Positions 10,106 to 39,946 of a stretch of DNA of 64,000 nt are shown here, in pieces. The stretch spans positions 21,175 through 85,174 of the forward strand of contig JAZSOS010000023.1 of assembly GCA_045537045.1 (NCBI GenBank), given 5' to 3'. Under the pieces are notes generated by a model. It was not told the DNA's origin. It searched no databases and saw nothing but the letters and a program-made list of their open reading frames with translations. The position numbers were made by a program, and so were the translations under genes. Origin of the DNA: Eubacteriales bacterium (GTDB lineage: Bacteria; Bacillota; Clostridia; Oscillospirales; JAAYXM01). How positions within the stretch are numbered: the first letter of the stretch is position 1; each line of letters begins with the position of its first letter.

Positions 10106-10915
10106 TTATTTTGCAAGAAGGAAGTATCCTATAACAAGAATACCGAGGATGATGCGGTAAACGCCGAAGGCTTTGAAATCGTGCTTGCGGACATACCCGG
10201 TAAGGAACTTTACCGAAATTAGCGACACGACATACGCAGTAATCATAGAAACCGCGAGGATTATCCATTCGCCGGACGACATAATATAGTCGTTCGTAAT
10301 GATTTTGAGAAAACTTACGCCGAACATAACAGGGATTGCGAGGAAGAATGAAAACTCCGCCGCGACGCTTCTTGATGTCCCGAGAAGAATTGCACCGAGG
10401 ATTGTAGCACCCGAGCGCGATGTTCCGGGGATTATGGAAAGAACCTGGAAAAGACCTATGAACAGCGCTGTTTTGTAGGTCATATCCGTCATATCCGCAA
10501 CCTTTACAGGCTTGTTTTTTCGTTCAATTATGATAAATGCAACACCATATACAACAAGCATTATGCTGACAACAAGCGGAGTTGAAACCGCGTCCATTGC
10601 ATCATTGAACAAAAGTCCGAGCACTGCTGCGGGGACGCACGCCACAATGACCTTAAACCACATCTGCCACGTTTGCTTTTTCTCGATGGCTGACTTTGAG
10701 GGAGAGAACGGATTGAGCTTTTTGAAATACAGCGTAGCGATTGCTAAAATCGCGCCAAGCTGGATTACATACAGAAAAATCTGCGATGAGAAAAAGCTCT
10801 TTTCATCTATTCCCATAAACTCATTGACTAAAATCATATGCCCCGTACTGCTTATGGGAAGCCATTCCGTTATACCTTCAACTATACCTATAATTATTGC
10901 TTTTAAAATATCCAT
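10106..10915 (-). CDS. uppP: undecaprenyl-diphosphate phosphatase
   Basis: BacA/UppP blocks [15 protein letters not shown] and [10 protein letters not shown]. Start set to the Met of MDILKAI (10915) by family N-terminus. Confidence 0.92.
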
Positions 10916-10947: not shown

Positions 10948-11490
10948 TTACTTTCTATTCTCCATATTCTGCATTATTCTCTCAAAGGCCTTGAGCACAA
11001 GCCACAGCAGAATAATTTCGACAGGCAGAAGCGCAATGTTTTTAATCACGCGTTCAACGAGAAGAACGATATACGCCCTACCGTAAAGATTTGACAGCCA
11101 ATATGTATTGAGCGCAATATTCACGCCGACATTAACCACAGTTTTAGAGACGATTACACGCCAGACGCGAAGTGGCTTTTCATAAAGGAAAATTGCAAAG
11201 ACCAGCACGGTCAGCATCGTGGAAAGCGTGAAGCCGAGGTGCAGAGGTCCTGCCGGACGTATAACATATGCGATAAGGTCACACGCAAGCGCAGCGAGCG
11301 TGCCGGTGAAATGCCCGAAGCGATACCCCAGAAGCCCAAGAACAAGAAATGAAAAAGTGAGCTGCATAGTCGGGGTAACATAGACGGATGCAGTGTCTAT
11401 TGCCACATAGAGCGCAACAAGCACGGCACACATTGCGAGAGAATGGATGTTTTTTATCTCGCCAAGCGAGGATTTGATACGGTTTTGCAT
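10948..11490 (-). CDS. folT: ECF transporter S component, folate family
   Basis: 180 aa with about 5-6 TM helices and a typical ECF S-component size. It sits directly behind a THF riboswitch. Confidence 0.8.
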
Positions 11491-11560
11491 AATTTTAGTC
11501 CTCCTTTGTTAAATTTTGGTACAACAAAACCTGACACAAAGAGGACAGTAAGCCGTATTT

Positions 11561-11661
11561 GCAGCGGGATGCGGAAACATCACGGCAACGCAACTGCGCC
11601 TTCGTCCGCGCGACAACTCCCCGTTCGCACAGCACTTAACCCGATATTCCCTACTCTGCCT
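11561..11661 (-). promoter_or_regulatory. THF (tetrahydrofolate) riboswitch, class I
   Basis: Minus-strand RNA is GGCAGAGUAGGGAAUAUCGGGUUAAGUGCUGUGCGAACGGGGAGUUGUCGCGCGGACGAAGGCGCAGUUGCGUUGCCGUGAUGUUUCCGCAUCCCGCUGC. It carries the conserved AGAGUAG, GUUAAGUG, GGGA, ACGAAG and GCAUCCGCU-type blocks in the order I remember for the crystallised Eubacterium siraeum THF aptamer. It lies upstream of folT. Confidence 0.85.
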
Positions 11662-12593: not shown

Positions 12594-12648
12594 AATAAAA
12601 ATAACACCAAAAGAACTATGAACTTCACGTCATATTTCTTTTGGTGTT
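12594..12648 (-). terminator. intrinsic terminator ending the iorAB-paaK-ACT operon
   Basis: 13-bp stem AACACCAAAAGAA/TTCTTTTGGTGTT (12603-12615 / 12636-12648), followed on the minus strand by AUUUUUAUU. Confidence 0.6.
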
Positions 12649-12666
12649 TTTGATTTATTCTTTAAT

Positions 12667-13098
12667 TTACTTTAAGCCAAGGTTGGATTTAGAAGCGATT
12701 GCTATTCCTTTTGCCTTAAAGGTTTCAACAAGCTTTTCCTCGTCGTTTGCGCGGAAAACCATATAAGCTTTTTCGTCACCGTGGCTAAGAATTGAATACA
12801 TATACTCAATGTCAATTCCGGTATCCGAAATAACGGCAAGAACCTCAGAAAGACCTGCCGGACGGTCAGGCACTGCAACTACGCAGACAGGAGTCATCGT
12901 GAGAATATTTCCCTGTTCAAGGAGAATGGATGACGCGCGCTCCGCATCGTCAACAATCATACGCAAAACACCGTAATCAGTGGTTTCTGCAATGGAGATT
13001 GCGCGGAGATTTACGCCATTTTCAGCAAGAAGTCCCGTAACCTCTGCGAGCTGACCTGCGCGGTTTTCAAGAAAAACAGAAATCTGATAAATATTCAT
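12667..13098 (-). CDS. ACT domain protein (PaaK-associated)
   Basis: 143 aa with two ACT-like repeats (ISVFLENRAGQLAEVTGLL...). This is the usual position downstream of paaK. Confidence 0.85.
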   Translation of the reverse strand: MNIYQISVFLENRAGQLAEVTGLLAENGVNLRAISIAETTDYGVLRMIVDDAERASSILLEQGNILTMTPVCVVAVPDRPAGLSEVLAVISDTGIDIEYMYSILSHGDEKAYMVFRANDEEKLVETFKAKGIAIASKSNLGLK

Positions 13099-13113
13099 TA
13101 TCCTATACCCTCC

Positions 13114-14424
13114 TTAAATTTTGCGCTTATCAATAACGCGGACAGCTTTGCCCTCGCTTCGTGCAATTGTTTTCGGAGCGACAAGCTTTACCTTTGCCGC
13201 AATACCAAGCATTGCCTTGAGTGCAGAAACGAGACTTTTTTCCATCTCTGCAATTTTTGCAAGAGAATCGGAGAAGTTTTCAGGTGTCATTTCAACCATA
13301 ACTTCAAAGGTGTCAGAATTATTCACACGGTCAACTATAATCTGGTAATTTGCCTGATATCCCTGTTCAAGAAGGACGGTTTCAATCTGCGACGGGAATA
13401 CGTTTACGCCGCGGATGATAAGCATATCATCACTTCTTCCCATCGGCTTGCACATTTTAACGTGCGTTCTGCCGCAGGAGCAGGGCTTGCGAGAAAGAAC
13501 ACAGATGTCGCGGGTACGGTAACGGAGAAGCGGGAACGCTTCTTTTGTGATGCATGTGAAAACAAGCTCACCCTTGCTCCCTTCCGGAAGCACTTCGCCT
13601 GTATCGGGGTCAATGATTTCAGCAATAAAGTGGTCTTCATTTATATGCATACCTGTCTGCTCTTCACATTCGAAAGCAACACCCGGTCCGGAAATTTCCG
13701 TAAGACCGTAGATATCATATGCGCGGATACCAAGCTCACGCTCAATATCTCGGCGCATTTCTTCACTCCATGCCTCGGCACCGAAGATACCCGCCTTAAG
13801 ATTTATCTTGTCCTTTATTCCGCGTTCTTTGATGGATTCTGCAAGATATGCAGCATACGAAGGTGTGCAGCAGATAATAGTGGAACCCAAATCCTCCATA
13901 AACTGGAGCTGACGGTCGGTATTACCCGAAGACATCGGGAGAGTGAGACATCCGACCTTGTGCGAACCACCGTGGAGTCCTGCACCACCGGTAAAGAGAC
14001 CGTAGCCGTAGGCAACGTGGCATACATCTTCTTTTGTTCCGCCAACAGCAACGATTGCACGTGCACAGCAGTCTTCCCAGAGGTCAACGTCATGCTGAGT
14101 ATAGAAAGCCATAACACGCTTGCCGGTTGTTCCGGAGGTGGAATGGATTCTTACACATTCAGACAGCGGTTTTCCGACAAGTCCGTAAGGATATGCATCA
14201 CGAAGATCCGCCTTTGTTATGAACGGAAGCTTATGAAGGTCGTCAACACCCTTGATATCATCCGGGGTTACTCCCTTTTCTTCCATTTTTTTGCGGTAAT
14301 ACGGAACGTTATCCCAAACATGCTTTACCTGATTCACCAAACGCTCACTCTGCCACGCGCGAATCTGCTCATACGATGCAGTTTCTATTTCAGGCTGATA
14401 ATATCTTTTTTCCATTACATTCAC
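13114..14424 (-). CDS. paaK: phenylacetate--CoA ligase
   Basis: 436 aa. PaaK family blocks (HSTSGTTGKR, YGLTE, RYRTRD, GRSDDMLIIRGVNVFP). Confidence 0.9.
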   Translation of the reverse strand: MNVMEKRYYQPEIETASYEQIRAWQSERLVNQVKHVWDNVPYYRKKMEEKGVTPDDIKGVDDLHKLPFITKADLRDAYPYGLVGKPLSECVRIHSTSGTTGKRVMAFYTQHDVDLWEDCCARAIVAVGGTKEDVCHVAYGYGLFTGGAGLHGGSHKVGCLTLPMSSGNTDRQLQFMEDLGSTIICCTPSYAAYLAESIKERGIKDKINLKAGIFGAEAWSEEMRRDIERELGIRAYDIYGLTEISGPGVAFECEEQTGMHINEDHFIAEIIDPDTGEVLPEGSKGELVFTCITKEAFPLLRYRTRDICVLSRKPCSCGRTHVKMCKPMGRSDDMLIIRGVNVFPSQIETVLLEQGYQANYQIIVDRVNNSDTFEVMVEMTPENFSDSLAKIAEMEKSLVSALKAMLGIAAKVKLVAPKTIARSEGKAVRVIDKRKI

Positions 14425-14433
14425 GCTTTCTTT

Positions 14434-15009
14434 CTATTTTGAATTTTTGCCGAGGTTAAATGCTTTTTTATTCATTTCGAGAAACGTTTCAGGAACGCTT
14501 TCCTCAATGGCGCGCATCCACTCTTCCTCGGACGCATCAAAGTAATTTGAAAGACGTCCCATAAGCACGATATTTACAGCCTTTGACGAACCGGCTTCTT
14601 CCGCAAGAGAAAGAGCGTCAAATGCATCTACATCAACACCTGCATCCTTCATTTTTCCTGCAAGATCAGACGGATACTGCGCCGCTCCTGTTATGACAGG
14701 CATGGGGTTAATCTGCTGGGTGTTTGTGACAATCTTTCCGCCGGGCTTTAAAAACTCTGTCCATCGGGCTGCCTCTAAAAGCTCGAATGAAACGATAAAA
14801 TCCGCCTCACCCTTGTCAATAATCGGAGAATAAACTTTCTCGCCGTATCTTACATACGTTACGACGCTTCCTCCGCGCTGGCTCATTCCGTGAACCTCAG
14901 AGACCTTAATGTCATATCCTTTCGTGAGAAGAAGGCGGCCTAAAAGCTTTGAAGCAAGAAGGCTTCCCTGACCGCCAACGCCTACTATCATTACATTTTT
15001 TGTTTCCAT
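14434..15009 (-). CDS. iorB: indolepyruvate ferredoxin oxidoreductase, beta subunit
   Basis: 191 aa. VGVGGQG...SEVHGMSQRGGSV pyruvate/ketoisovalerate oxidoreductase gamma-like domain. It lies 3 nt after iorA. Confidence 0.9.
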   Translation of the reverse strand: METKNVMIVGVGGQGSLLASKLLGRLLLTKGYDIKVSEVHGMSQRGGSVVTYVRYGEKVYSPIIDKGEADFIVSFELLEAARWTEFLKPGGKIVTNTQQINPMPVITGAAQYPSDLAGKMKDAGVDVDAFDALSLAEEAGSSKAVNIVLMGRLSNYFDASEEEWMRAIEESVPETFLEMNKKAFNLGKNSK

Positions 15010-15012
15010 AGC

Positions 15013-16752
15013 TTAGTCCTCCTTCGGAGCATGAAGTGCATCAAACTTGCAAAGCTGTTCGCAGACACCGCAGCCTGTGCAAAGCGTGGTGTCAATCTTT
15101 GCTTTGCCGTTTTCCATACTGATTGCCGGGCAACCAATCTTCATACACATCTTACATCTCTTGCACTTATCGGATTCAACAACAAGCGGCTTATTGTGCT
15201 TAACGTATTTAAGAAGCGCGCACGGACGGCGGGAAATAATAACTGACGGCTCTTCCGCTGCAAGCTCTTCTTTTATCACCGTTTCACACTCTTTGAGGTT
15301 ATACGGGTCTACAACACGGACACGGGAAATTCCCATTGCGCGGCAGAGTGCTTCAAGGTCAATCTTTGATGCGGGATCACCTTTTAAGTTGTATCCGGTG
15401 GTCGGGTTCTGCTGATGTCCCGTCATACCTGTGATTGAGTTATCAAGGATAATAACCGTTGAATTTGATGCGTTATATGCGATATTAACAAGTCCCGTCA
15501 TACCGGAGTGCATAAACGTGGAGTCACCGATAACAGCAACAGTCTTTCCGTCGCTTTCACCACTCTGTGCCTTGTTAAACCCGTGAAGACCGGAAATTGA
15601 CGCACCCATACAAATCGTGCTGTCGAGTGCCGAGAGCGGAGGAACAGCGCCAAGCGTATAGCAACCAATGTCACCGTGTACGGTAATTTTGTTCTTTGCA
15701 AGAGTATAGAACAGACCTCTGTGCGGACATCCCGCGCACATTACCGGAGGACGCTGCGGGATATCATCGGAAAGCTTTACGCCGCAAAGAGTTTCCTTGC
15801 CGAGCTTTTCTGCAACGAGGTTCTGACTGAACTCTCCTATGCAAGAGAACATATCTTTTCCCGAAACCTCTATACCGAGATTTCTGCAATGATCTTCAAC
15901 AAAGCTGTCAAGCTCTTCAACAACTATGAGCTTATCAACGCCTGCCGCAAAATCCTTTATGAGATTTACCGGAAGAGGCCAGATCATACCGAGCTTTAAA
16001 ACCGGATATTTATCGCCGCAGACCTCTTTTACATACTGATATGAGGTTGATGAAGTGATAATACCGATGCTCTTATCCGCACCGTCTTCAACTCGGTTTA
16101 CGGATGCAGTTTCGGCAAACGACGAAAGAGCCATCGTACGCTCTTCAACAACCGGATGGCGGCGCTTAGCATTGCCCGGCATCATAATGTACTTTGAAGG
16201 AGTTTTTTCATATGTTTTTGAAGCTTCTATACGATCAGATGTTTCAACAACGCTCTGGGAATGAGCTACACGCGTGCACATTTTAAGAAGCACGGGGGTA
16301 TCAAACTTTTCCGAAATTTCATATGCAAGCTTTGTGAACTCTATTGCTTCCATCGAATCTGCCGGCTCAAGCATCGGGATTTTTGATGCCCTTGCATAGT
16401 GGCGGGAATCCTGCTCATTCTGTGAGCTGTGCATTCCAGGATCATCTGCAACCGCGATAACCATACCTGCATTAACTCCGGTGTAGGAGATCGTGAAAAG
16501 CGGGTCTGCGGCAACATTGAGTCCGACGTGCTTCATACCGCAGAAGCTTCTCTTCCCTGCCATACACGCACCGAAAGCAGCTTCCATTGCAACCTTCTCA
16601 TTCGGTGCCCACTCGGCATACACCTCTTTGTATTTTGCAACCATCTCGGTAATTTCGGTACTCGGTGTACCGGGGTAACTGGAAACAAAGCTGCAGCCTG
16701 CTTCAAAAAGGCCGCGGGCAACCGCTTCGTTGCCAAGCATTAACTTTTTCAT
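15013..16752 (-). CDS. iorA: indolepyruvate ferredoxin oxidoreductase, alpha subunit
   Basis: TPP-enzyme domains plus C-terminal 2x[4Fe-4S] (CKRCKMCMKIGCP, CTGCGVCEQLC). Start at Met 16752 (MKKLMLGNEAVARG) behind AAGGAGGT. Confidence 0.92.
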   Translation of the reverse strand: MKKLMLGNEAVARGLFEAGCSFVSSYPGTPSTEITEMVAKYKEVYAEWAPNEKVAMEAAFGACMAGKRSFCGMKHVGLNVAADPLFTISYTGVNAGMVIAVADDPGMHSSQNEQDSRHYARASKIPMLEPADSMEAIEFTKLAYEISEKFDTPVLLKMCTRVAHSQSVVETSDRIEASKTYEKTPSKYIMMPGNAKRRHPVVEERTMALSSFAETASVNRVEDGADKSIGIITSSTSYQYVKEVCGDKYPVLKLGMIWPLPVNLIKDFAAGVDKLIVVEELDSFVEDHCRNLGIEVSGKDMFSCIGEFSQNLVAEKLGKETLCGVKLSDDIPQRPPVMCAGCPHRGLFYTLAKNKITVHGDIGCYTLGAVPPLSALDSTICMGASISGLHGFNKAQSGESDGKTVAVIGDSTFMHSGMTGLVNIAYNASNSTVIILDNSITGMTGHQQNPTTGYNLKGDPASKIDLEALCRAMGISRVRVVDPYNLKECETVIKEELAAEEPSVIISRRPCALLKYVKHNKPLVVESDKCKRCKMCMKIGCPAISMENGKAKIDTTLCTGCGVCEQLCKFDALHAPKED

Positions 16753-16768
16753 TTTGCAAGATACCTCC

Positions 16769-18328
16769 TTATTGATGTTCAACCGGATCGCCAATGGCAT
16801 CCTTTTGAGAAACAACTACTTTTTTATCGTAGCATGAGAAAACATTATTAATGTGCTCCTGCGGCGGAGCTTTTGTTACAAGACTTACAACAGGAACAAT
16901 CACAAGTCCTATTACCATACAAAACGCACCTGCGTTAATCGGTGACTGAAGAAACGCCGGAAAAGCTGACTTACAGAGAATATTTGCAAGCATAAATACC
17001 GTTGAGAAAACAAAGCATGCCCATACGGAAGCCTTGGTCGTGCGCTTCCAATAAAGACCATAAAGGAACGGAGCGAGGAACGCGCCGGCAAGAGCGCCCC
17101 ATGAAATTCCCATAAGCTGAGCAATAAAGGTTACGCTTGACTTATACTGCAAGATTGCGATGACCGATGATATTGCAATAAATACAGCAATAAGTATGCG
17201 CATAATGAGAAGCTGAGACTTCTCGCTCATATTTTTAACCACTGTTCCCTTCAGGAAATCAAGGGTAAGCGTTGAACTTGAAGTAAGAACCAGAGAGGAA
17301 AGCGTTGACATTGATGCAGAAAGAACAAGCACAACCACAACAGCAATAAGAACAGTCGGAAGCCCCTCAAGCATGGTCGGAATAACGGAGTCATAACCGT
17401 TTGCCGCAATGTCAATCTTATCGGAGAAAAGTCGACCGAAGCCGCCAAGGAAATAGCATCCGCCGGCAACAACAAGCGCAAAAACAGTGGAGATAATCAT
17501 TCCTTTATTAATTGACTTTTCACTCTTGATTGCATAAAACTTCTGAACCATCTGCGGGAGTCCCCACGTTCCGAGAGATGTGAGAATAACAACGCCAAGA
17601 AGGTTTACCGGGTCAGGACCGAAGAATGAATTGAACACACCGGGAGTTGAAGATACGGACGGGTCACTGATTTTCCCAAGACCGTCCAATGCAGCGAGAA
17701 AACCACCCTGACTGTTAAGGACTGCGGCAATTACCGCTACAATGCCAACAAGCATAATAATGCCCTGTATAAAGTCATTTATTGCAGTTGCCATATATCC
17801 GCCGACAATAACATAAATTGCAGTGAGAACCGCCATAGCAATAACGCAGACGGAATAGTCAATATTAAACGCCATTCCGAAAAGACGCGAAAGACCGTTA
17901 TAAAGCGAGGCGGTATATGGAATAAGGAATATGAATATTACTGCGGATGCGGCAACCTTCAATGCCTTGCCGTCAAAACGCGACTCAAAAAACTGCGGCA
18001 TCGTTGCACTGTCAAGATGCTGAGTCATAACACGAGTTCTTCTGCCGAGCACAGCCCATGCGAGAAGCGAACCCAAAAGCGCGTTTCCGATACCTGCCCA
18101 AGTTGCGGCAATGCCGTATTTCCAGCCGAACTGTCCGGCATATCCCACGAATACAACAGCAGAAAAATACGAGGTGCCGTATGCAAAAGCAGTAAGCCAA
18201 GGACCTACACTTCTGCCGCCGAGAACAAAGCCGTCAACATTTGTCGAATGCTTTCTGCAATAAATACCGACACCTATCATCACGGCAAAAAACGCAACGA
18301 GCATTGATGCCTTTATGAACAAATCCAT
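16769..18328 (-). CDS. sodium:solute symporter family transporter
   Basis: 519 aa, about 13 TM helices, SSF-type sequence (PutP/PanF-like). Confidence 0.85.
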   Translation of the reverse strand: MDLFIKASMLVAFFAVMIGVGIYCRKHSTNVDGFVLGGRSVGPWLTAFAYGTSYFSAVVFVGYAGQFGWKYGIAATWAGIGNALLGSLLAWAVLGRRTRVMTQHLDSATMPQFFESRFDGKALKVAASAVIFIFLIPYTASLYNGLSRLFGMAFNIDYSVCVIAMAVLTAIYVIVGGYMATAINDFIQGIIMLVGIVAVIAAVLNSQGGFLAALDGLGKISDPSVSSTPGVFNSFFGPDPVNLLGVVILTSLGTWGLPQMVQKFYAIKSEKSINKGMIISTVFALVVAGGCYFLGGFGRLFSDKIDIAANGYDSVIPTMLEGLPTVLIAVVVVLVLSASMSTLSSLVLTSSSTLTLDFLKGTVVKNMSEKSQLLIMRILIAVFIAISSVIAILQYKSSVTFIAQLMGISWGALAGAFLAPFLYGLYWKRTTKASVWACFVFSTVFMLANILCKSAFPAFLQSPINAGAFCMVIGLVIVPVVSLVTKAPPQEHINNVFSCYDKKVVVSQKDAIGDPVEHQ

Positions 18329-18373
18329 TATATTATCCTTCTTTCAGAATTTAAATTAACCCAAGAGAAAACA

Positions 18374-20011
18374 TCAGCCTGTAATCTGAGCCTCGACAAG
18401 ACGACCTTTGCAGTACTTTTCACGCAGTACCGGCTTTTCAATTTTTCCGGTAGGATTGCGCGGAATCTTATCGAAGAAGATTTTACGCGGGCGCTTGTAT
18501 CTCGGAAGCTGTTCGCAGAAGGAGTTTATCTCATCCTCCGTGCAGGACATTTCTTCTTTAATCTCAATTATCGCTGCACAAATCTCGCCGAGACGTGCAT
18601 CCGGAAGGCCGATGACAGCAACATCTTTTATCTTTTCGTTTGAACGGAGAAAATCTTCAATCTGAACCGGATAAAGGTTTTCGCCACCGGAAATGACAAC
18701 GTCTTTTTTGCGGTCAACGAGATAGATAAATCCATCTTCATCCTCACGCGCCATATCACCCGTATAAAGCCAGCCGTTCTTTAAGACTTCGTTTGTTGCT
18801 TCTTCGTTTTTGTAATAGCAAAGCATTACGCCATCACCGCGGACGATAAGCTCACCAACGTCGCCACGGGATACGGCATTCCCTTTTTCATCAACGATTT
18901 TTGCTTCCCAATTATATCCGGGCTTGCCGATTGCGCCGACCTTATGTACGTTTTCAACACCGAGGTGAACACAACCGGGGCCGATAGACTCTGAAAGACC
19001 GTAGTTCGTGTCATACTGATGATGTGGGAATACCTCAAGCCAACGCTTTATAAGACTCGGCGGAACAGGCTGGGCACCGATATGCATAAGACGCCACTGT
19101 GAAAGGTGATATTTGGAAACATCCACCCTTCCGGATTCTATTGCATCAAGAAGATCCTGCGCCCACGGAACTAAAAGCCATACGATAGTACATTTTTCTT
19201 CCGTGACAGCGCGGAGAATCCACTCCGGCTTCACGCCGCGCAATAAAACGGCACGGCTTCCCGAAAGAAGAGAGCCGAACCAGTGCATCTTTGCACCGGT
19301 ATGGTAAAGCGGAGGTATGCAGAGGAACACATCGTCACGCGTCTGGCTGTGATGATTCTGCTCCGTGATACACGCGCAGACAAGTGAGCGGTGGTCATGG
19401 AGAATCGCCTTCGGGAATCCGGTTGTACCGGATGAGAAGTAAATTGCCGCGTAGTCATCCTCGCACAGTGCAACGGGAGGTGCGCTTGATGAGCAGAAAT
19501 TCATAAGTGACAAACAGTTTTCCGAATATTCGGGTCCATTATCGCCTACAAAAAACAGTGTATGTACACGCGCAAGGTCATCAGCAATAACATCCATGCG
19601 GCTTATAAACTCAGGGCCAAACGCAAGAACCTCAACATCTGCAAGGTCAAGGCAGTATTTTATTTCATCGCTTGAATAACGGAAGTTCATTGGCACAGCA
19701 ATACATCCGGCTTTTAGAATACCGAAGTAAATCGGAAGCCACTCTATACAGTTCATCAGAAGGATGCCGACCTTTGCACCGCGCGCAATTCCGCGGCTTA
19801 AAAGAAGATTTGCAAAGCGGTTAGCACGCCTGTCAAAATCCTTCCATGTTATTTCGCGGCGGTACGGAGCATCTACCCCAGCACTTTCGATGAGATTAAA
19901 ATCCCACCACGTTGTAACCTTGTCGCGTTCTTCCGAGGGGTTAAGCTCAACAAGACTTGTTTCCGCACCGTAAAGGCGCGCATTTCTTTCAAGAAAATCA
20001 GTAATAACCAT
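18374..20011 (-). CDS. AMP-dependent acyl-CoA synthetase/ligase (class I adenylate-forming enzyme)
   Basis: AMP-binding signature YFSSGTTGFPKA, plus YGLSE, GDMA..DEDGF.Y..DRKKD, GKIEK. Start at Met 20011 (MVITDFLERN) behind GGGAGA. Confidence 0.88.
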   Translation of the reverse strand: MVITDFLERNARLYGAETSLVELNPSEERDKVTTWWDFNLIESAGVDAPYRREITWKDFDRRANRFANLLLSRGIARGAKVGILLMNCIEWLPIYFGILKAGCIAVPMNFRYSSDEIKYCLDLADVEVLAFGPEFISRMDVIADDLARVHTLFFVGDNGPEYSENCLSLMNFCSSSAPPVALCEDDYAAIYFSSGTTGFPKAILHDHRSLVCACITEQNHHSQTRDDVFLCIPPLYHTGAKMHWFGSLLSGSRAVLLRGVKPEWILRAVTEEKCTIVWLLVPWAQDLLDAIESGRVDVSKYHLSQWRLMHIGAQPVPPSLIKRWLEVFPHHQYDTNYGLSESIGPGCVHLGVENVHKVGAIGKPGYNWEAKIVDEKGNAVSRGDVGELIVRGDGVMLCYYKNEEATNEVLKNGWLYTGDMAREDEDGFIYLVDRKKDVVISGGENLYPVQIEDFLRSNEKIKDVAVIGLPDARLGEICAAIIEIKEEMSCTEDEINSFCEQLPRYKRPRKIFFDKIPRNPTGKIEKPVLREKYCKGRLVEAQITG

Positions 20012-20040
20012 TTTAATTCTCCCTTTTTTGATTCTCGGCA

Positions 20041-20077
20041 AAAAACAGAAACGTCCTCTGCCGCAAAGCAGAGGACG
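20041..20077 (-). terminator. T-box terminator hairpin
   Basis: 10-bp stem CGUCCUCUGC/GCAGAGGACG (20077-20068 / 20061-20052), followed by UUUCUGUUUUU, 30 nt before the ligase ATG. Confidence 0.85.
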
Positions 20078-20290
20078 ATTTAAAATCGTGGTACCACCTC
20101 AGTTTACCGCGCAAAAGCGCGGCCTCATTGGTCAAGCTGTGTCGGGCAAACCCGTCTTTGCCTACTGAAAGGACTTGTTCGGCAAAGCCGCTCCGAAAGG
20201 TAATTCCGCACACACGCACCACTGCCTCACAGCAACCGACAGCTCTCTGAAGATAACATTGTACACGTACTGGTTTTCATCATCGCGTTA
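20041..20290 (-). promoter_or_regulatory. T-box leader (tRNA-sensing transcription attenuator)
   Basis: Minus strand: stem I base with K-turn (CGC-GAUGA...GA-GCG), S-turn AGUA (20271-20268), AGAGAG bulge (20248-20243), specifier loop GAAUUACC (20206-19199 region: 20206-20199). T-box sequence AACUGAGGUGGUACCACG (about 20103-20087) can pair GAGG with CCUC of the terminator. The terminator stem follows. A possible extended -10 TGtTAAAAT lies at 20322-20314. Confidence 0.88.
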
Positions 20291-20351
20291 TTATAATAAA
20301 TATATGATGATTTATTTTAACATTTTTGTGCCGACAAGTCAATGGTAAATT

Positions 20352-22220
20352 TCAATTTTCCGACGAATTTTCCCACAAAATGCAGGATGATTTACTTCCG
20401 AGGAGTAACTTTCCAAAAGACAGCGAACATTCACCACATGCAAGCGCAATTTCCGCGTTATCCCGAACCTTAAACAATTTACGTTTATGTCCACGGTTTA
20501 TAAATGCCTTGACTTTGCCTCTGGACACAACAAGAAAGTCCCCCTCGGCGTATTCCACACGGAAGGGCGCTGTGGTCATACATTTATTGCCTGTTTTTAT
20601 TCTTCCCAAGCTTCGGTAAAACTCAAGCAAATCTTCATCGACATTATCCCATGTGTAAAACCTTCTGTTAAATGGATCTTCAAAGCCCTGCATTCCTATT
20701 TCATCGCCGTAATATATGCAGGGAGAGCCCGGAAACATATACTGCAGGATAGCCGCCTGACGCAGACGTTCGCGACCTGCCTTCAGTTCTTTTTTATCAA
20801 GTTCCCGCGTTGCACGAAACTCCTTCGGTTCATGGCAAAGATTTCCCACGGAAAGCTCGTTTACGGCGCGCACTGTATCATGTGTGCCTATAATGTTCAT
20901 AAGACATCGCTGAGAAATCGCGGGGTAATTTTCAATGATGGACATAAGCGAATACTTCGCCTGAACAGCCGATATTCTTCCGCACAAAAAGTCAAGTATA
21001 CTGTTTTTGAGCGGATAGTTCATAACTCCGTCAAGCACACCGTCTGTAAAGTATCTTTTATTTACATCGTACGCTTTTTTTGTAGACGCATCTTCCCAGA
21101 CCTCACCTATGACAAGTGCTTCTTTATTCTCTTTTCGTGCTCTTGTTTTAAGCTGTTCAATAAAGTCATCAGGAAGCTCATCGGCAACGTCAAGTCTCCA
21201 TCCTGAAACACCTGCACGCATCCAATGTGCAATAACGCTGTCTTCACTGTTGATGATGTAGTCGGTATAATCACGGTTAAGTTCATTTACCTGAGGCAGA
21301 GTGTCAATTCCCCACCATGACGAGTAATTCCCATTTCCATCAATATCGAACCAGTTACGGAACGGAGAGCTTTTGTCATTCCACGCACCGGTATTTTCTC
21401 CGTATCTTCCCTCTTTGTTGAAATAGATGCTGTCTGAACCGGTATGGCTGAAAACTCCGTCCAGAATAACGCGCATTCCGTATTTCTTTGCTTCCCTGCA
21501 CAGTTCCGAAAGAATTTTCTCATCTCCGAAGTGAGGGTCAACCTTTTTATAATCAGCAGTATTGTATTTGTGATTTGACCACGCTTCAAATATCGGGCTT
21601 AAGTATATTGTTTTTACGCCAAGACTATCAAGATAAGGCAGTTTTTCAATAACACCTTCAAGGTTTCCGCCGTATATATCTCTGTTTTCTACAACACCTT
21701 GGCTGTTCGGTTTAAAATACGGCACTTCATTTTTATCCTTATGTACCGCGAAAAATGCATCGTCAGACAACTCCGGAGAGGTTGACGCACGATAAAACCG
21801 GTCAACAAACACGTGATAGGTTACACCCTCCGAAAACCACGAAGGCGTGGTATATTCCCGTGACGCAACCGTAAGCTGGAAACTTAATATGTTATTTTCG
21901 TTATCTACAATGCCATTTTTCCCGAAAAAAAGAGACTTACCATCGACTGTGTTGAGCACAAACCAATACCAGAATATCCCGGCTTTTTCAAATCCGGTCA
22001 ATGTGATACCGTATATATCATAAATGCCTTCCCTGCTTTGCCAAGGCATTTCGTATTCTTCTCTTTTTTTATCATATTCCGAAAATCTAACAAGCTTTAC
22101 AGATGTAATTTCCATGCAAAGCGCAGATGCGGAGAGCATCACGCACTCTCCGCACTTTATCGCTCCAAAAGGATTTTTATATTTTTCTGACTGAGAATCA
22201 AAGATAAATAGTTTTTCCAT
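20352..22220 (-). CDS. glycoside hydrolase family 13 enzyme (neopullulanase/maltogenic amylase-like)
   Basis: 622 aa. GH13 conserved regions DGVFSH, GWRLDVADE, GEVWE, GTHDT. Confidence 0.88.
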   Translation of the reverse strand: MEKLFIFDSQSEKYKNPFGAIKCGECVMLSASALCMEITSVKLVRFSEYDKKREEYEMPWQSREGIYDIYGITLTGFEKAGIFWYWFVLNTVDGKSLFFGKNGIVDNENNILSFQLTVASREYTTPSWFSEGVTYHVFVDRFYRASTSPELSDDAFFAVHKDKNEVPYFKPNSQGVVENRDIYGGNLEGVIEKLPYLDSLGVKTIYLSPIFEAWSNHKYNTADYKKVDPHFGDEKILSELCREAKKYGMRVILDGVFSHTGSDSIYFNKEGRYGENTGAWNDKSSPFRNWFDIDGNGNYSSWWGIDTLPQVNELNRDYTDYIINSEDSVIAHWMRAGVSGWRLDVADELPDDFIEQLKTRARKENKEALVIGEVWEDASTKKAYDVNKRYFTDGVLDGVMNYPLKNSILDFLCGRISAVQAKYSLMSIIENYPAISQRCLMNIIGTHDTVRAVNELSVGNLCHEPKEFRATRELDKKELKAGRERLRQAAILQYMFPGSPCIYYGDEIGMQGFEDPFNRRFYTWDNVDEDLLEFYRSLGRIKTGNKCMTTAPFRVEYAEGDFLVVSRGKVKAFINRGHKRKLFKVRDNAEIALACGECSLSFGKLLLGSKSSCILWENSSEN

Positions 22221-22232
22221 ATCTACCCCGGC

Positions 22233-24656
22233 TTATTCGCTTATCTTCTTCAAATTCCAGATATTATTCGCATATTCAGTTATGCTGCGGTCTGCAGCAA
22301 AGCGTCCGGCATTAGCAATGTTGATAAGCGATTTTCTGTTAAACAGCTCCTTATCTCTGTACTCGCGGTAAATTTTGTCATGCGCTTCGCAATAAGACGC
22401 AAAATCCGCAAGAAGCATATACTGATCATGGAAAAGGAGAGAATTTACAATATCGGGATATGAATTTCGCAGCACGCCGACACCTATACCGTCACGGATA
22501 TGGTCAAGAACTCTGCGGAGTTTTGGATCATTATGATAGTAATCTATCGGTGAATACGTTCCGGAGGCTGCCAGAGCCGCCACTTCGTGCGCTTTCATAC
22601 CGAATATATAGATATTCTCCTCACCAACCGCTTCGCATATCTCGACGTTTGCACCGTCAAGCGTACCGATAGTGAGCGCGCCGTTGAGCATAAACTTCAT
22701 ATTTCCCGTTCCTGAGGCTTCTTTACCGGCAATTGATATTTGCTCAGAAATTTCCGCCGCAGGAATCATAAGTTCTGCTATTGAAACATTATAATCCTCA
22801 ACAAACACTACTTTAAGCTTATCCGCCACCCTCTTATCAGAGTTTATCTCAGATGCAACGGAGTTGATTAACCTGATTATATTCTTTGCCATAGCGTATC
22901 CCGCCGCTGATTTCGCACCAAAGAAATATGTTTTCGGTTTAAAATCCATTCCGGGATTGTCAAGTAGCATATGGTATTCATAAAGAATATGCAGAACATT
23001 GAGAAGCTGACGCTTATACTCATGCAGTCTTTTCGACTGAACGTCGAAAATCGAGTCCGGATTTATATTCGTATCAAAGGACATTGCATTTACAAATCTT
23101 ACTTTGTTGTTATGCTTTATCTCGGAAAGCCGCTCCAGAACAGACTTATCATCAGAATACTTTTCAAGCTTTTTAAGAGCCGATGCATCGTAGCGGAAAT
23201 CATTTCCGATAAGCTCGGAAATAAGCGAGGTAAGCTCAGGATTTGCCTGACAGAGCCATCTTCTGTGAGCTATACCGTTGGTTACGTTAGTGAATTTCCC
23301 CGGGAACATATAGTTGTAATCCGAGAAAACAGTTTCCTTTAAAATGTTGCTGTGAAGCGCAGAAACACCGTTTACGGAAAAACATGTTGCTATACAGAGA
23401 TTTGCCATGCGGATTTCGCCGTTTGCAATGATTGCAAGCTTTCCTATCTTCTCTCTGTCTTCAGGGAAGGCGTTCCATAAATCATCACAGAACCTTCTGT
23501 TGATTTCTTCCACAATCATATAAATTCGCGGAAGAAGATGCCTGAACATCGAAATTGTCCAACGTTCCAGTGCTTCTGCCATTATCGTATGGTTTGTATA
23601 CGCCATACATTTTGATACGATCTCCCAGCTTTCATCCCAGCTGTATTCCTCTTCATCAATAAGAATACGCATAAGCTCTGGAATGGCAAGTGTCGGGTGC
23701 GTATCATTGATGTGAATGATAGCCTTATCTGCAAAATTGCGGAGTGTTCCGTATTTTGCCTTATGCTTTTTCACAATGCTTGAAATGGTTGCAGATACAA
23801 AGAAATACTGTTGCTTGAGTCGCAGCGACTTTCCTTCCTCGTGGTTGTCCTCAGGATACAGAATTTTGGAGATGACCTCACTCATCGCCTTCTGCTCCAT
23901 AGATTTTGCATACTCACCCTTTGAGAAAAGGTGCATATCAATACTTTTCGTAGACTTTGCACTCCACAAACGTAATGTGTTGACATTTTTTCCGGGATAT
24001 CCGGATATCAGCATATCGTTCGGCACAGCAAGCACGGTGTAATAATCGTGATGAGAGAATTTAAGCTTGCCGTCTTCCATATAGCTGTCAACCTTGCCGC
24101 CGAACCTTACCTCCTGAGTTTCCTCAATTCTCGGCACAGTCCATACACTTCCGGTTTCAAGCCAGTTATCAGGAAGCTCTACCTGCATTCCGTCGATGAT
24201 TTTCTGCTTGAATATTCCGTATTCATACAGTATGGAAAAGCCCATTCCCGGATAGTCCATAGCTGTGAGCGAATCCATATAGCACGCTGCAAGACGGCCG
24301 AGGCCACCGTTACCGAGGCCTGCATCGCGCTCTACCCCGAACAGCTCATCAAGCGACAAACCTAAGGTTTCAAACGTATTTGCAAACACCTCAGAAAGTC
24401 CGAGATTGTTAATATTGTTGTGCAGAGACTTGCCGATAAGAAACTCCATTGACAGATAATAAACCTGCCGGAGTTCTTTCTTTTCTATTTCATCCTGCGC
24501 ACGAGCCCAGTTTTCCATCAACACATCACGAATGATAAATGAGCAAGCGGAATATAATTCTTCATAACTTGCCTCATTTATTTCTTTTCCAAAATGTCTT
24601 GAAAGCTTACCGGCAATAAGCTCCTTTAATTTTTTTTCATTCAAGTGTATCCCCAT
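22233..24656 (-). CDS. glgP: glycogen/maltodextrin phosphorylase
   Basis: 807 aa. GT35 family, PLP-site block EASGTGNMKFMLNGALTIGTLDGANVE. Confidence 0.95.
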   Translation of the reverse strand: MGIHLNEKKLKELIAGKLSRHFGKEINEASYEELYSACSFIIRDVLMENWARAQDEIEKKELRQVYYLSMEFLIGKSLHNNINNLGLSEVFANTFETLGLSLDELFGVERDAGLGNGGLGRLAACYMDSLTAMDYPGMGFSILYEYGIFKQKIIDGMQVELPDNWLETGSVWTVPRIEETQEVRFGGKVDSYMEDGKLKFSHHDYYTVLAVPNDMLISGYPGKNVNTLRLWSAKSTKSIDMHLFSKGEYAKSMEQKAMSEVISKILYPEDNHEEGKSLRLKQQYFFVSATISSIVKKHKAKYGTLRNFADKAIIHINDTHPTLAIPELMRILIDEEEYSWDESWEIVSKCMAYTNHTIMAEALERWTISMFRHLLPRIYMIVEEINRRFCDDLWNAFPEDREKIGKLAIIANGEIRMANLCIATCFSVNGVSALHSNILKETVFSDYNYMFPGKFTNVTNGIAHRRWLCQANPELTSLISELIGNDFRYDASALKKLEKYSDDKSVLERLSEIKHNNKVRFVNAMSFDTNINPDSIFDVQSKRLHEYKRQLLNVLHILYEYHMLLDNPGMDFKPKTYFFGAKSAAGYAMAKNIIRLINSVASEINSDKRVADKLKVVFVEDYNVSIAELMIPAAEISEQISIAGKEASGTGNMKFMLNGALTIGTLDGANVEICEAVGEENIYIFGMKAHEVAALAASGTYSPIDYYHNDPKLRRVLDHIRDGIGVGVLRNSYPDIVNSLLFHDQYMLLADFASYCEAHDKIYREYRDKELFNRKSLINIANAGRFAADRSITEYANNIWNLKKISE

Positions 24657-24680
24657 TAAATGTACCTCTTCGTTATAAGA

Positions 24681-26126
24681 TTATTCGCAAATCAGAGCGT
24701 CATACAGCTTATTGTATTCTTTAGCTGGTTTTTTCCATGAAAAATCGACGCTCATCCCATTCTCAATAAGCTTTGCCCATTTTTCCTTATTGCGGTAGCA
24801 ATCGCATGCCGCGCGTATTACGCCGAGCATCTCATGTGCATTATATTCAGAAAAGACAAAGCCGTTTCCTTCTCCTCTTTCAGCGTCATACTGCGAAATG
24901 CTGTCCCCAAGTCCGCCGGTTTTTCGCACAATCGGAATTGTTCCGTAGCGGAGCGCGATCATCTGAGCAAGACCGCACGGCTCGCTTTTTGACGGCATAA
25001 GGAACATATCAGAGCCGGCATATATTTTCTGCGCAAGCTCACTGTTAAAGGCGATATTTACCGACAACTTAAACGGATACTGCCACTGCTTATCACGCAG
25101 GAACTGTTCATATTTCCAGTCCCCTGTTCCTACAATGACCATCTGGACATCATCCTCAAGAAGCTCATCAATAACGCATGAAACCAAATCAAGACCTTTA
25201 TGTGAAACAAGGCGCGTTACCATACCGATAACGGGAATATCTCCGTTTTTCGGCAAATTCACAAGTGACTGAAGCTCTTCTTTATTCTGAGCTTTTCCTG
25301 TCATATCCTTTTTCGAGTAGTTAAAGAAAATCCTCTTATCCTTTGCCGGGTCATAAAGCTTCTGGTCGATGCCGTTAATTATTCCGCAAAGCTTGCCTTC
25401 CTCATAACGCAAAATTTCATGAAGGCCATGGGCATACTCCGGAGTTTTTATCTCTTCGGCATATGACGGACTTACGGTAGTTACGCGGTCGGAACAGGTA
25501 ATGGCTGCCTTCATCAGATTAACAGCGCCGCCAAATTCAAGGAAGCCGTTATTAAACTCTTCTATCGGCAAACCAAGAACGTTTTCCACAATTTCTCTGT
25601 CGAAAATGCCCTGATATTCTATATTATGAATCGTGAATACAGTTTTGATACGCTCATACCCCGGACGCATATAGTATTTAAGCTTATAATAAATCGGCAC
25701 AAGCGCGGTCTGCCAGTCGTGAGAATGAATGACATCCGGATAATAATCAATATAGGGCAGAATTTCAAGAACCGCCGTGGAGAAAAACGCGAAGCGCTCT
25801 GCATCATCATAGCATCCGTACAGCGCACCACCACGCTTAAAGTAGTATTCATTATCTATAAAATACCACGTTACGCTTTTTTCTTCGTACTTAAAAATAC
25901 CGCAATACTGACTTCTCCACGCAAGCGGGATAAATATATTGGTTACCGGAACAAGCTTGCGCCTTACCTTTTCCGGAACTCCCTCGTGAAGAGGAATAAC
26001 AACAGCAACCTCGCAATTTTTGCCGGATATAGCCTTCGGGAGCGAACCGATAACATCGCCCAAGCCTCCGGATTTTATGAACGGTGCAGCCTCGGACGCT
26101 GCAAAAAGTATTTTTTTCTTTTCCAT
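24681..26126 (-). CDS. glgA: glycogen synthase (ADP-glucose type)
   Basis: 481 aa with N-terminal KSGGLGDV motif. GT5 family. Confidence 0.95.
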   Translation of the reverse strand: MEKKKILFAASEAAPFIKSGGLGDVIGSLPKAISGKNCEVAVVIPLHEGVPEKVRRKLVPVTNIFIPLAWRSQYCGIFKYEEKSVTWYFIDNEYYFKRGGALYGCYDDAERFAFFSTAVLEILPYIDYYPDVIHSHDWQTALVPIYYKLKYYMRPGYERIKTVFTIHNIEYQGIFDREIVENVLGLPIEEFNNGFLEFGGAVNLMKAAITCSDRVTTVSPSYAEEIKTPEYAHGLHEILRYEEGKLCGIINGIDQKLYDPAKDKRIFFNYSKKDMTGKAQNKEELQSLVNLPKNGDIPVIGMVTRLVSHKGLDLVSCVIDELLEDDVQMVIVGTGDWKYEQFLRDKQWQYPFKLSVNIAFNSELAQKIYAGSDMFLMPSKSEPCGLAQMIALRYGTIPIVRKTGGLGDSISQYDAERGEGNGFVFSEYNAHEMLGVIRAACDCYRNKEKWAKLIENGMSVDFSWKKPAKEYNKLYDALICE

Positions 26127-26141
26127 AATTCCTCCAAAAGT

Positions 26142-27263
26142 TTATAATTTACAGCCCATGGGAAGCACGGTGGGATACATTTCCGCTCCGCGGAGAGAAA
26201 CACCTTTTGATATAACGACCTGCCCGTCGGTGATGCAATACTCAAGCTTTGCATCCTCACCGATATCCGCACCCTGAAGAATGACACAGTTTTTAACAGA
26301 AGCACCTTTGCCGACACGGACGTTTCGTGAAATAATTGAGTTTTCGACAGTGCCCTCAATCACACAGCCATCGGCAAGCATGCTGTTCTTTACAACCGCT
26401 TCTTCACCGAACATTGACGGAACTTCATCAAATATATGTGTTGCAATCTCGCCACCGCTAAAGAGCTCGTCTCTTGTTTTTTCATTGAGCAAATCAAGAT
26501 TTACCTTGAAATACGATTCAACGGAATCTATTTTCTCGGCGTAACCCTTATACTCGCACGCATAGATGTCAAGTGACTGCGCCATATCCTGAATGATGTC
26601 GCGCTCAAAATCATACTTGTTATGCGCAACACATTGGCAGATCAAAAACTCCAGCAAACCACGCTCAATGATATACGTTCCGAGAAGCATATTGCTGTGG
26701 AGCTGTATATCCTGATTTATTGTTATATCCTTAATTCTACCGTCCTTGTCAACATCAATAAAAGCATTGTTTTTAAACTTTGACGGTTCATATACCTCTG
26801 CTTTATACAGTGCTGTCATGTACGCCTGCTTCTCGATATGCGTTTGGAGAAGCTCGGTGTAATCTATATTTGCGATAAGATTTCCGTCTGAGAGCAGGAT
26901 GTATTTACAGTCGCAATTTCTGATATAATCAATAATTCCCATAAGAACAGATATCTTTCCGTTTCTTTCAGAAAACATATCGCGGCTTCCGATAGACGGC
27001 GGTAAGATTGAAAGTCCACCTTTTTTACGGTTCAAATCCCATTCCTTACCAGTACCGAGATGGCTCATAAGCGAATAATAATCGCTTTTGGTAACAACAC
27101 CCACGTTTTTAATTCCGGAATTAACCATACTTGAAAGTGTGAAATCTATCATACGGTATCTTCCGCCAAAAGGCACGGAGGCTGCTGTTCTGTTTTCCGT
27201 AAGTTCGCGCATCGCATCAACCTTGTCGTGCGCAAAAATTATCCCCAAAGTATCTCTTATCAT
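26142..27263 (-). CDS. glgD: glucose-1-phosphate adenylyltransferase, GlgD subunit
   Basis: 373 aa. GlgC paralogue lacking the GGxGxRL motif. Its start overlaps the glgC stop by 4 nt, as in Firmicute glgCD pairs. Confidence 0.88.
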
Positions 27264-28474
27264 AACGCCACCTCCGCATCGGGAATGTCTTCTTCCACTA
27301 TGGTGCCGGGTTCTATCCGGGCATTACTGCCTACCGTAAGCGAATTTCCAACAACAGTTATTTTTTTGCGTTCACCCTCTGCCGGAGCTGCGCCTATTCT
27401 GGCGCCCGCTCTGACAGTAACATTCTCCGCTATAATTGAATACTCAATAACTGCGCCGTCCTCAATTACGCTTCCGGGCATTATAATTGAGTTGTTTACA
27501 ACGGCGTCTTTACCTATCTTTACGTCATAAAAAATTATGGAGTGGTCAACCGTTCCGCAGGTATAACAGCCTTCGGCGATCATGGACTTTTTTACAACGG
27601 CATCCGTTGAAATGAACTGAGCCGGCTTTACGGGGTTCCTTGCATAAATTCTCCAGCCTTTATCGTGGAGAACAAGTCCACTTCCAGGAGTTATAGCGTC
27701 CATATTCGACTCCCACAAGCTGTCTATCGTTCCGACATCCTTCCAATAGCCTTTATACTCATACGCAAAAAGCTTTTTACCGTCTCCAAGCATCTTGGGG
27801 ATAATGTTTTTACCGAAATCGTTCTGGCTTTCGGGATTGTTTTCATCCTCTATAAGATATTTTTCCAGAACCTCCCATGTGAAAATATACACACCCATAG
27901 ACGCTTTGGTGCTTTTTGGTTTTTTGGGTTTTTCCTCAAACTCATAGATGGAATTGTCATCACGAAGATTCATTATTCCAAAGCGCGAAGCTTCCTCAAT
28001 CGGCACATCAATTACCGCTATTGTACAATCCGCCTTCGCTTTTTTGTGTTCACGGAGCATCCAGTCGTAATTCATTTTATAAACGTGGTCTCCTGAAAGA
28101 ACAAGAACATACTTAGGGTTAAAGTTTCTTATAAAGTTTATGTTCTGGTAAATCGCGTTTGCTGTTCCCTTGTACCATGCTCCGCTTGTGCTTGTCATAT
28201 ACGGAGGCAGAATTGCAACACCGCCGTTGGAGCGGTCGAGATCCCATGGCTGGCCGTTTCCGATATATGTGTTGAGTTCAAGCGGCTGATACTGAGTAAG
28301 TACGCCTACCGTATCAATACCCGAGTTGATACAGTTAGACAGCGGAAAGTCTATAATCCTGTACTTTCCGCCAAACGGAACTGCCGGCTTTGCCACGTTT
28401 TTCGTAAGTACGTGAAGTCTGCTTCCCTGCCCGCCGGCAAGAAGCATTGCGATACATTCCTTGGATTTTAACAT
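27260..28474 (-). CDS. glgC: glucose-1-phosphate adenylyltransferase
   Basis: [10 protein letters not shown] nucleotide-binding motif and left-handed beta-helix C-terminus. ATG 28474 behind AAGGGA is preferred over GTG 28480. Confidence 0.93.
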
Positions 28475-28480
28475 TTTCAC

Positions 28481-39836: not shown

Positions 39837-39904
39837 TTTAACATTCCTCCTGTCAAAACACATTATGAGGCAAAACATATCAACCGGATATGCTTTGCTC
39901 CGTC

Positions 39905-39946
39905 TAAAAAAGCAAGCAGACATATGAACGCAGCATATGTCCGCTT
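39905..39946 (-). terminator. intrinsic terminator/attenuator between argF and the CPS fusion ORF
   Basis: 13-bp stem AAGCGGACAUAUG/CAUAUGUCUGCUU (39946-39934 / 39926-39914), followed by GCUUUUUU. Confidence 0.7.

Follow-up and report, generated by a model that had tools for sequence, protein, structure and literature searches.

A T-box leader with a tyrosine specifier precedes an iorAB-paaK operon in a bovine-gut Clostridia bacterium and points to arylacetate salvage

We analysed a stretch of 64,000 nucleotides (hereafter the window) from contig JAZSOS010000023.1 of an uncultured bovine-gut Clostridia bacterium (assembly GCA_045537045.1), which carries on its minus strand an operon of six genes in a run between a T-box leader RNA and an intrinsic terminator. 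In the order of transcription, the genes encode a FadD-like AMP-forming acyl-CoA ligase, a sodium:solute symporter, the alpha and beta subunits of an indolepyruvate:ferredoxin oxidoreductase (IOR; IorA and IorB), a PaaK-family ligase and a protein with a pair of ACT domains. The subject of this text is the leader, the amino acid that it senses, its recurrence ahead of orthologous genes, and what these suggest about the direction in which the operon works.

A scan with Rfam returned a single T-box in the window, RF00230, at 20068-20292 (minus strand), with 141.3 bits against a gathering score of 93, an E-value of 1.8e-31 and a match over the full length of the model (positions 1-219 of 219). 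The leader is composed of Stem I (K-turn, S-turn specifier loop, AGAGA bulge and distal loop), Stem II, Stem IIA/B, Stem III and the T-box/antiterminator, and the elements of Stem I are all present (GCGAUGA...GGAGC; the S-turn AGUA/GAA as CCAGUA and GAA-U-UAC-C; CAGAGAG; GGUUGCUGUGAGG). The T-box sequence AAACUGAGGUGGUACCACG (20087-20105) and the antiterminator helix, together 20071-20105 on the minus strand, were read directly from the sequence. The leader's own intrinsic terminator (20040-20077, minus strand) has the arms CGUCCUCUGC and GCAGAGGACG and a U-tract; its stem of 11 base pairs, seven of them GC, extends from 20077 to 20052 and is followed by UUUCUGUUUUUU. The 5' arm of this terminator overlaps the 3' arm of the antiterminator, and as the CGUCCUC arm is common to both hairpins, the two folds compete and are mutually exclusive. 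Upstream, at 20314-20342 (minus strand), lies the best sigma-70-type promoter of the region, a consensus match only, with TTGACT, a TG-extended spacer of 17 nt and TAAAAT (10 of 12 positions matching). Since promoter-like and terminator-like sites were not in overall excess over shuffles across the region, only the specific leader sites were used. Folding of the whole leader yielded an uninformative minimum free energy (z -0.97), as expected for a two-state switch, and the covariance model and direct reading were relied on instead. An exact look-up of the window IorA gave no match; the 98%-identical P0001 led to a contig of the same species (L081), in which the leader is kept at 97% identity. 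The T-box leader at 20068-20292 is real, with next to no doubt.

The first ATG of the operon is found 28 nt past the leader terminator, with the ribosome-binding site AAAGGGAGAA, and the intergenic gaps measure 45, 16, 3, 18 (9 with a GTG start of paaK) and 15 nt. The first gene (18374-20011, minus strand, as are all genes of the operon) encodes the FadD-like ligase of 545 aa, with PF00501 and PF13193 and no NCBIfam cutoff reached; its closest structures are FadD13, FadD5, and feruloyl-CoA and 4-coumarate-CoA ligases. The second (16769-18328) encodes an SSF symporter of 519 aa (PF00474, 191 bits), for which the PutP and PanF models stay below their cutoffs; we propose that it imports arylacetates. 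A promoter-like site (18327-18355, minus strand; TTTAAA-17-TATAAT, 10/12, a consensus match only) in the 45 nt that separate the ligase and symporter genes could give the downstream genes an expression independent of the T-box. IorA (15013-16752, 579 aa; TIGR03336, 720.6 bits against a cutoff of 650.9) and IorB (14434-15009, 191 aa; NF005325, 276.6 bits against a cutoff of 230; PF01558) both reach their equivalog cutoffs and hold the domains for thiamine pyrophosphate and 4Fe-4S binding (PF02775, PF01855, PF00037, PF01558), and among the 8000 homologues of IorA at E <= 1e-50 those with a source name are all labelled IorA. IorAB is thus assigned as indolepyruvate:ferredoxin oxidoreductase (EC 1.2.7.8), for which an arylpyruvate/arylacetyl-CoA activity is predicted.

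The fifth gene (13114-14415; 433 aa from ATG, with a GTG at 14424) belongs to the PaaK family of AMP-forming arylacetate-CoA ligases (TIGR02155) and is close to the solved PaaK 2y27 (E 3e-123) and to 4r1l, which is deposited as phenylacetate-CoA ligase (E 6.6e-121). Family membership being clear and the TIGR02155 equivalog cutoff missed, we name it a PaaK-like arylacetate-CoA ligase and not an equivalog. The last gene (12667-13098; 143 aa) encodes the ACT-domain-pair protein (PF19571, 90 bits; E 4e-25 to 2f06) and follows paaK in most related loci as a conserved partner. The two ligases are both AMP-forming enzymes of the ANL superfamily (PF00501), and none of the six genes carries PF01515, PF00871 or PF13607, the domains of Pta/Ack and ADP-forming ligases. 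The operon ends in an intrinsic terminator (12594-12648, minus strand) with an AU-rich stem of 13 bp followed by AUUUUUAUU (dG -22.3, z -3.69), a hairpin that none of 200 shuffles folded as well and that a simple terminator scan overlooked on account of its long loop. The run of six tightly spaced genes between a T-box leader and a terminator at 12594-12648, as given in a preliminary description of this DNA, was thereby borne out, including the gene identities by Pfam and NCBIfam.

The specifier codon of the window leader is UAC (Tyr), at 20200-20202 on the minus strand; it lies within GAA-U-UAC-C (20199-20206), on the 3' side of the specifier loop. The loop is followed by a helix in which UUUC pairs with GAAA. 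The four base pairs of this helix, directly 3' of the codon plus one nucleotide, are intact in all 23 related leaders compared and exist there in five compensatory versions (GAAA/UUUC, GGAA/UUCC, GGAG/CUCC, GAAG/CUUC and AAGA/UCUU). In the Rfam alignment the codon columns hold UAC in the window leader and UAC or UUC in related leaders. A further leader (locus L045), situated upstream of a genuine tyrS (TIGR00234, 417 bits), has GAA-UAC-A in the aligned columns. The register of the specifier is fixed by the covariation of the lower helix together with UAC standing in the same column of this tyrS leader. The residue 3' of the codon is A in the tyrS leader and in the leaders of units that begin with yerC-iorA. 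The antiterminator of the window leader has a UGGU bulge that would pair with the 3'-ACCA end of a tRNA. UGGU fits the discriminator base A73 of tRNA-Tyr and tRNA-Phe; tRNA-Ser has G73. We are therefore highly confident that the window T-box reads tyrosine.

The recurrence of this arrangement was followed in two scans. A genome scan anchored on IorA covered 80 loci, mostly from Oscillospirales and other Clostridia metagenome-assembled genomes, of which 72 had enough upstream sequence, and a metagenome scan anchored on the FadD-like ligase covered 80 further loci, including contigs from human gut and bioreactors according to their record names. A strict regular expression for the T-box motif produced many chance matches inside genes and was replaced by an nhmmer profile, with an Rfam check on a subset. 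A T-box precedes the operon in 19/72 of the IorA-anchored genome loci and the ligase in 25/77 of the ligase-anchored metagenome loci; the total of 47 leaders, standing ahead of orthologous genes in gut and rumen Clostridia, forms 37 clusters at 90% identity. Two of the leaders (L013a and L024a) have CAA in place of GAA in the S-turn and are strong nhmmer hits, but are missing from the Rfam results at the gathering score. All 47 leaders, from many other Clostridia with orthologous operons, have either UAC (Tyr) or UUC (Phe) as their specifier; a T-box with a Trp specifier was not found ahead of any ior operon among the scanned loci. From the Tyr and Phe T-boxes of the 37 leader clusters, induction by limitation of aromatic amino acids is predicted. 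The gene order ligase-(symporter)-iorA-iorB-paaK-ACT is widely conserved among the IorA-anchored loci. Sequence near-identical to 12600-20350 of the window occurs mainly in bovine-gut metagenome runs, and also in food-production and other gut metagenomes.

Which specifier a leader has goes with the gene that opens the unit. Units that start with the ligase fall into 25 Tyr and 6 Phe clusters, and those that start with iorA or yerC-iorA into 0 Tyr and 6 Phe clusters (Fisher p = 0.0004, the clusters not being phylogenetically independent). Two loci (L013 and L024) have the operon divided between two units, each with its own promoter, T-box and terminator: T-box(Tyr)-ligase, with the symporter added in L024, and T-box(Phe)-iorA-iorB-paaK-ACT. 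Within these operons (L013 5587-8000, L024 3882-8000) the cassette is duplicated, with identical TTGACT-17-TAGAGT promoters and with UAC as the first and UUC as the second specifier, which looks like a duplication of the leader followed by a one-base change of specificity. More distant organisms have a monocistronic T-box(Tyr)-ligase (L126, L138, L139), a T-box(Tyr) controls a ligase-symporter pair in L128, and closely related Faecousia loci have UAC versus UUC as their sole difference. Lawsonibacter-like genomes have, between the Phe T-box and iorA, a gene for a small TrpR-related protein, YerC/YecD (TIGR02531, 88 bits; L060 7660-8007; L062 7654-7965; L065 7627-7944; L055 5331-5771), which may add to the T-box a further tier of regulation, by a protein, that is tied to aromatic amino acids.

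This distribution supports the assignment of the two ligases to different aryl acids, the FadD-like ligase to a Tyr branch, with 4-hydroxyphenylacetate as the obvious candidate, and PaaK to a Phe branch; what had been a guess in the preliminary description gains support from the Tyr bias of the ligase-first T-boxes and from the T-boxes of iorAB-paaK-ACT units being all Phe. For the window, we propose that the FadD-like enzyme is a 4-hydroxyphenylacetate-CoA ligase of the Tyr branch, the link to tyrosine coming from the T-box specifiers and the substrate being the candidate that would follow from it.

Taken together, we consider it probable that a transcription-attenuation T-box specific for tRNA-Tyr gates a six-gene arylacetate-salvage operon. 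The RNA elements of the switch are found by sequence and by the Rfam model, and the switching itself we infer from the behaviour of the T-box family. The GUA anticodon of uncharged tRNA-Tyr would pair with UAC in the specifier loop and its free ACCA end with the UGGU bulge, whereby the antiterminator would be stabilised and the polymerase would read through the leader terminator; in relatives with UUC the signal would be uncharged tRNA-Phe. Arylacetates, which are abundant in the bovine gut, would be imported by the SSF symporter and activated by the AMP-forming ligases, the FadD-like one acting on 4-hydroxyphenylacetate and the PaaK-like one on phenylacetate. Reductive carboxylation of the arylacetyl-CoA by IorAB, with CO2 and reduced ferredoxin, would then give 4-hydroxyphenylpyruvate or phenylpyruvate, and an aminotransferase encoded elsewhere would yield Tyr or Phe. 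More speculatively, the ACT protein, probably through binding of an amino acid, might modulate PaaK or IOR. Reductive carboxylation of phenylacetate to Phe is reportedly classical rumen physiology, going back to Allison in 1965.

The operon thus likely runs in the biosynthetic direction, from arylacetate to aromatic amino acid, and the proposal that T-box logic fits a biosynthetic and not a degradative operon is supported by the Tyr and Phe specifiers of the relatives, the two AMP-forming ligases and the lack of Pta/Ack. Genes that a T-box controls serve to make more of its cognate amino acid available, and the only coherent route by which this gene set could do so is uptake, activation, reductive carboxylation and transamination of arylacetates. 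Starvation-induced control, two AMP-forming ligases and the lack of an ATP-yielding step therefore favour salvage.

Several observations weigh against this reading. About 70% of the syntenic operons are without a T-box; control is therefore lineage-specific, and the direction proposed here applies to genomes with the T-box only. Syntenic loci without one include L002, L003, L004, L008, L009, L011 and L044, the upstream spacer of L003 being only about 150 nt long. In the split loci, starvation for Tyr alone would not induce IOR, and a basal expression of IOR is thus required. There is no aminotransferase within the operon and there are no aromatic-pathway (aro/phe/tyr) genes within the window, the PaaK-like ligase stays below the TIGR02155 equivalog cutoff (516.2 bits against 646.3), and the codon is followed by C in 17 of 23 aligned leaders, the window leader among them, in place of the usual, although not defining, purine. 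The runs that hold 12600-20350 are DNA metagenomes only, with no RNA runs found among them. IOR is reversible, and a homologous IOR of Bacteroides thetaiotaomicron is reported to be involved in the formation of phenylacetate from Phe (PMC13285125), from which it follows that such clusters can run oxidatively.

The last of these points, together with the role of IOR as a peptide-fermentation enzyme in Pyrococcus and the absence of the T-box from most syntenic operons, speaks for a catabolic operon, in which IorAB oxidatively decarboxylates arylpyruvates in amino-acid fermentation and the T-box is incidental or serves another gene of the operon. However, a T-box induces when its cognate amino acid is scarce, at which point degrading that amino acid would be counter-productive; T-boxes stand directly ahead of iorA or yerC-iorA in six clusters, and with two AMP-forming ligases and neither Pta/Ack nor an ADP-forming ligase the thioester would yield no ATP. 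We hold catabolism to be unlikely on these grounds. An explanation centred on the transporter is similarly improbable: here the T-box would be present because the SSF symporter imports tyrosine, with the ligases and IOR as passengers or the operon working in both directions. Amino-acid transporters are typical T-box targets, and the best family models of the symporter are PutP and PanF, both below cutoff, but many T-box-controlled versions of the operon have no symporter (L030, L037, L049, L068, L096, L100-L109), and some T-boxes control the ligase alone (L126, L138, L139) or yerC-iorAB alone. Weakest is a mis-read specifier, for although the loop GAAUUACC has C where a purine is usual after the codon, and a shifted register would make the operon answer to a non-aromatic amino acid (ACC for Thr or UUA for Leu in the window, ACC/ACA for Thr and UCC/UCA for Ser across the leaders on a +1 shift), this is very unlikely given that the base after a +1 codon would be a paired residue of the covarying helix (paired 23/23), that the Rfam alignment sets UAC and UUC in the codon columns, that the tyrS leader holds UAC-A in the same column, and that UGGU suits A73 and not the G73 of tRNA-Ser; the non-aromatic specifier that the preliminary description had named as a possible refutation was looked for, and the specifier is UAC.

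The T-box specifiers may serve as built-in substrate labels that delineate a modular, two-branch network of arylacetate salvage in gut and rumen Oscillospirales. We offer this reading tentatively, at somewhat short of an even chance. The FadD-like enzyme would then be a previously unrecognised 4-hydroxyphenylacetate-CoA ligase of the Tyr branch, sometimes a stand-alone T-box(Tyr) gene, and iorAB-paaK-ACT would be the Phe branch, with single-base UAC/UUC switches and leader duplications re-wiring the branches; were it true, starvation for Phe or Tyr would make consumers of phenylacetate and 4-hydroxyphenylacetate out of these abundant bacteria.

Routine annotation assigns IOR-PaaK clusters to the degradation of aromatic amino acids or phenylacetate, and a starvation-sensing T-box provides independent evidence, readable from sequence, for the reverse direction in many gut and rumen Clostridia. 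This bears on metabolic models of amino-acid auxotrophy and cross-feeding, and on the question of who produces and who consumes phenylacetate and 4-hydroxyphenylacetate, the precursors of host-relevant phenylacetylglutamine and p-cresol. It further provides a candidate function for a widespread ligase now labelled long-chain fatty-acid CoA ligase, and makes an old observation of rumen physiology genetically testable, via the response to tRNA-Tyr, a UAC to UUC swap and defined ligase substrates.

In the surroundings of the operon, the promoter of the T-box is directly preceded on the same strand by a complete glycogen cluster (20352-30382, minus strand; branching enzyme, glgC, glgD-like, glgA, phosphorylase and an amylase/debranching-like enzyme), with the same layout in L081. 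Past the operon terminator come sigG and then a second riboswitch-controlled unit, a tetrahydrofolate (THF) riboswitch (RF01831, 81.8 bits, 11560-11660, minus strand) directly upstream of folT (energy-coupling factor S-component, TIGR04518, 102 bits, 10948-11490, minus strand). Elsewhere in the window, at 35325-39923 (minus strand), a complete CarB is joined in one open reading frame of 1532 aa to the N-terminal domain of the small chain of carbamoyl-phosphate synthase and, at the C-terminus, to a diaminopimelate-epimerase domain. No glutaminase domain was detected in this frame, which ends an argC-J-B-D-F cluster; it could be an unusual fusion or else an artefact of the frame.

In other Clostridia (L045, L079, L047) genes of aromatic supply, with T-box-like sequences ahead of them, directly adjoin the ior/paaK cluster. 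By nhmmer, a leader whose specifier is UAC stands ahead of tyrS (L045 12283-13927); there is a match to the T-box motif only, with no leader by profile search, ahead of trpE (L079 12466-14076), and a weak leader with UGG, below the Rfam gathering score, ahead of a TrpB-like gene (L047 1-1683, minus strand). L062 has a fluoride riboswitch (46 bits; 11578-11651, minus strand) some 1.3 kb downstream of iorB and on the other strand, and in the related L060 an open reading frame that by eye resembles the fluoride channel CrcB (10327-10692) lies between iorB and paaK.

Among known systems, RF00230 T-boxes such as the Bacillus subtilis tyrS leader resemble the window leader in structural elements, in the terminator/antiterminator design and in the UAC specifier, and the tyrS leader of L045 aligns with it column for column. 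In contrast to the purine that is usual 3' of the codon in T-boxes, the window leader has C. In place of an aminoacyl-tRNA synthetase, a gene of de novo biosynthesis or an amino-acid transporter, its target is an operon of a 2-oxoacid:ferredoxin oxidoreductase with two acyl-CoA ligases. For T-box control of an ior/arylacetate-ligase operon, and likewise for a partition of Tyr and Phe specifiers between the FadD-like ligase and iorAB-paaK, we found no description in the open literature, subscription literature and RegPrecise being outside the scope of the search. The claim of novelty in the preliminary description accordingly stands in part: the T-box link was not met with in the open literature, but the idea of an anabolic IOR with an AMP-forming ligase is already in print (PMC13285125).

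The closest parallel in chemistry is the anabolic route of methanogens (Methanobacterium thermoautotrophicum, Methanococcus maripaludis) and of the rumen, which is the same as that proposed for the window operon. Anabolic IOR in methanogens is also said to have been described by Porat in 2004. What is known of the methanogen and rumen cases comes from labelling and enzymology, and no RNA regulator is known for them, whereas the evidence from the window is regulatory and genomic only and comes from a Clostridia host. For Methanobacterium, an anabolic IOR was described by Tersteegen 1997 (as cited in PMC13285125), and for Bacteroides clusters of IOR and an AMP-forming arylacetate-CoA ligase an anabolic role has been argued on thermodynamic grounds (PMC13285125, 2026). 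In the Bacteroides cluster iorAB adjoins a PaaK-type AMP-forming ligase, as in the window operon, but neither a second, FadD-like ligase nor a symporter is described, and experiments showed a part in phenylacetate production.

The structures matched by the PaaK-like ligase (4r1l) and by the ACT protein (2f06) are ones that we take to be Bacteroides thetaiotaomicron proteins, the search output giving no source organisms; to our knowledge, Bacteroides lies outside the lineages in which T-boxes usually occur. The ligase of the aerobic phenylacetate catabolon (paa) is of the same family as the window ligase (E 3e-123 to Burkholderia PaaK1). Unlike the aerobic paa cluster, the window operon has no paaABCDE ring-epoxidase or later paa genes, and the window ligase is paired with IOR under a logic of amino-acid starvation instead of induction by its substrate. 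The leader, IorAB, the PaaK-like ligase and the ACT pair are thus ordinary members of their families, and what appears to be new is the membership of this operon in the T-box regulon.

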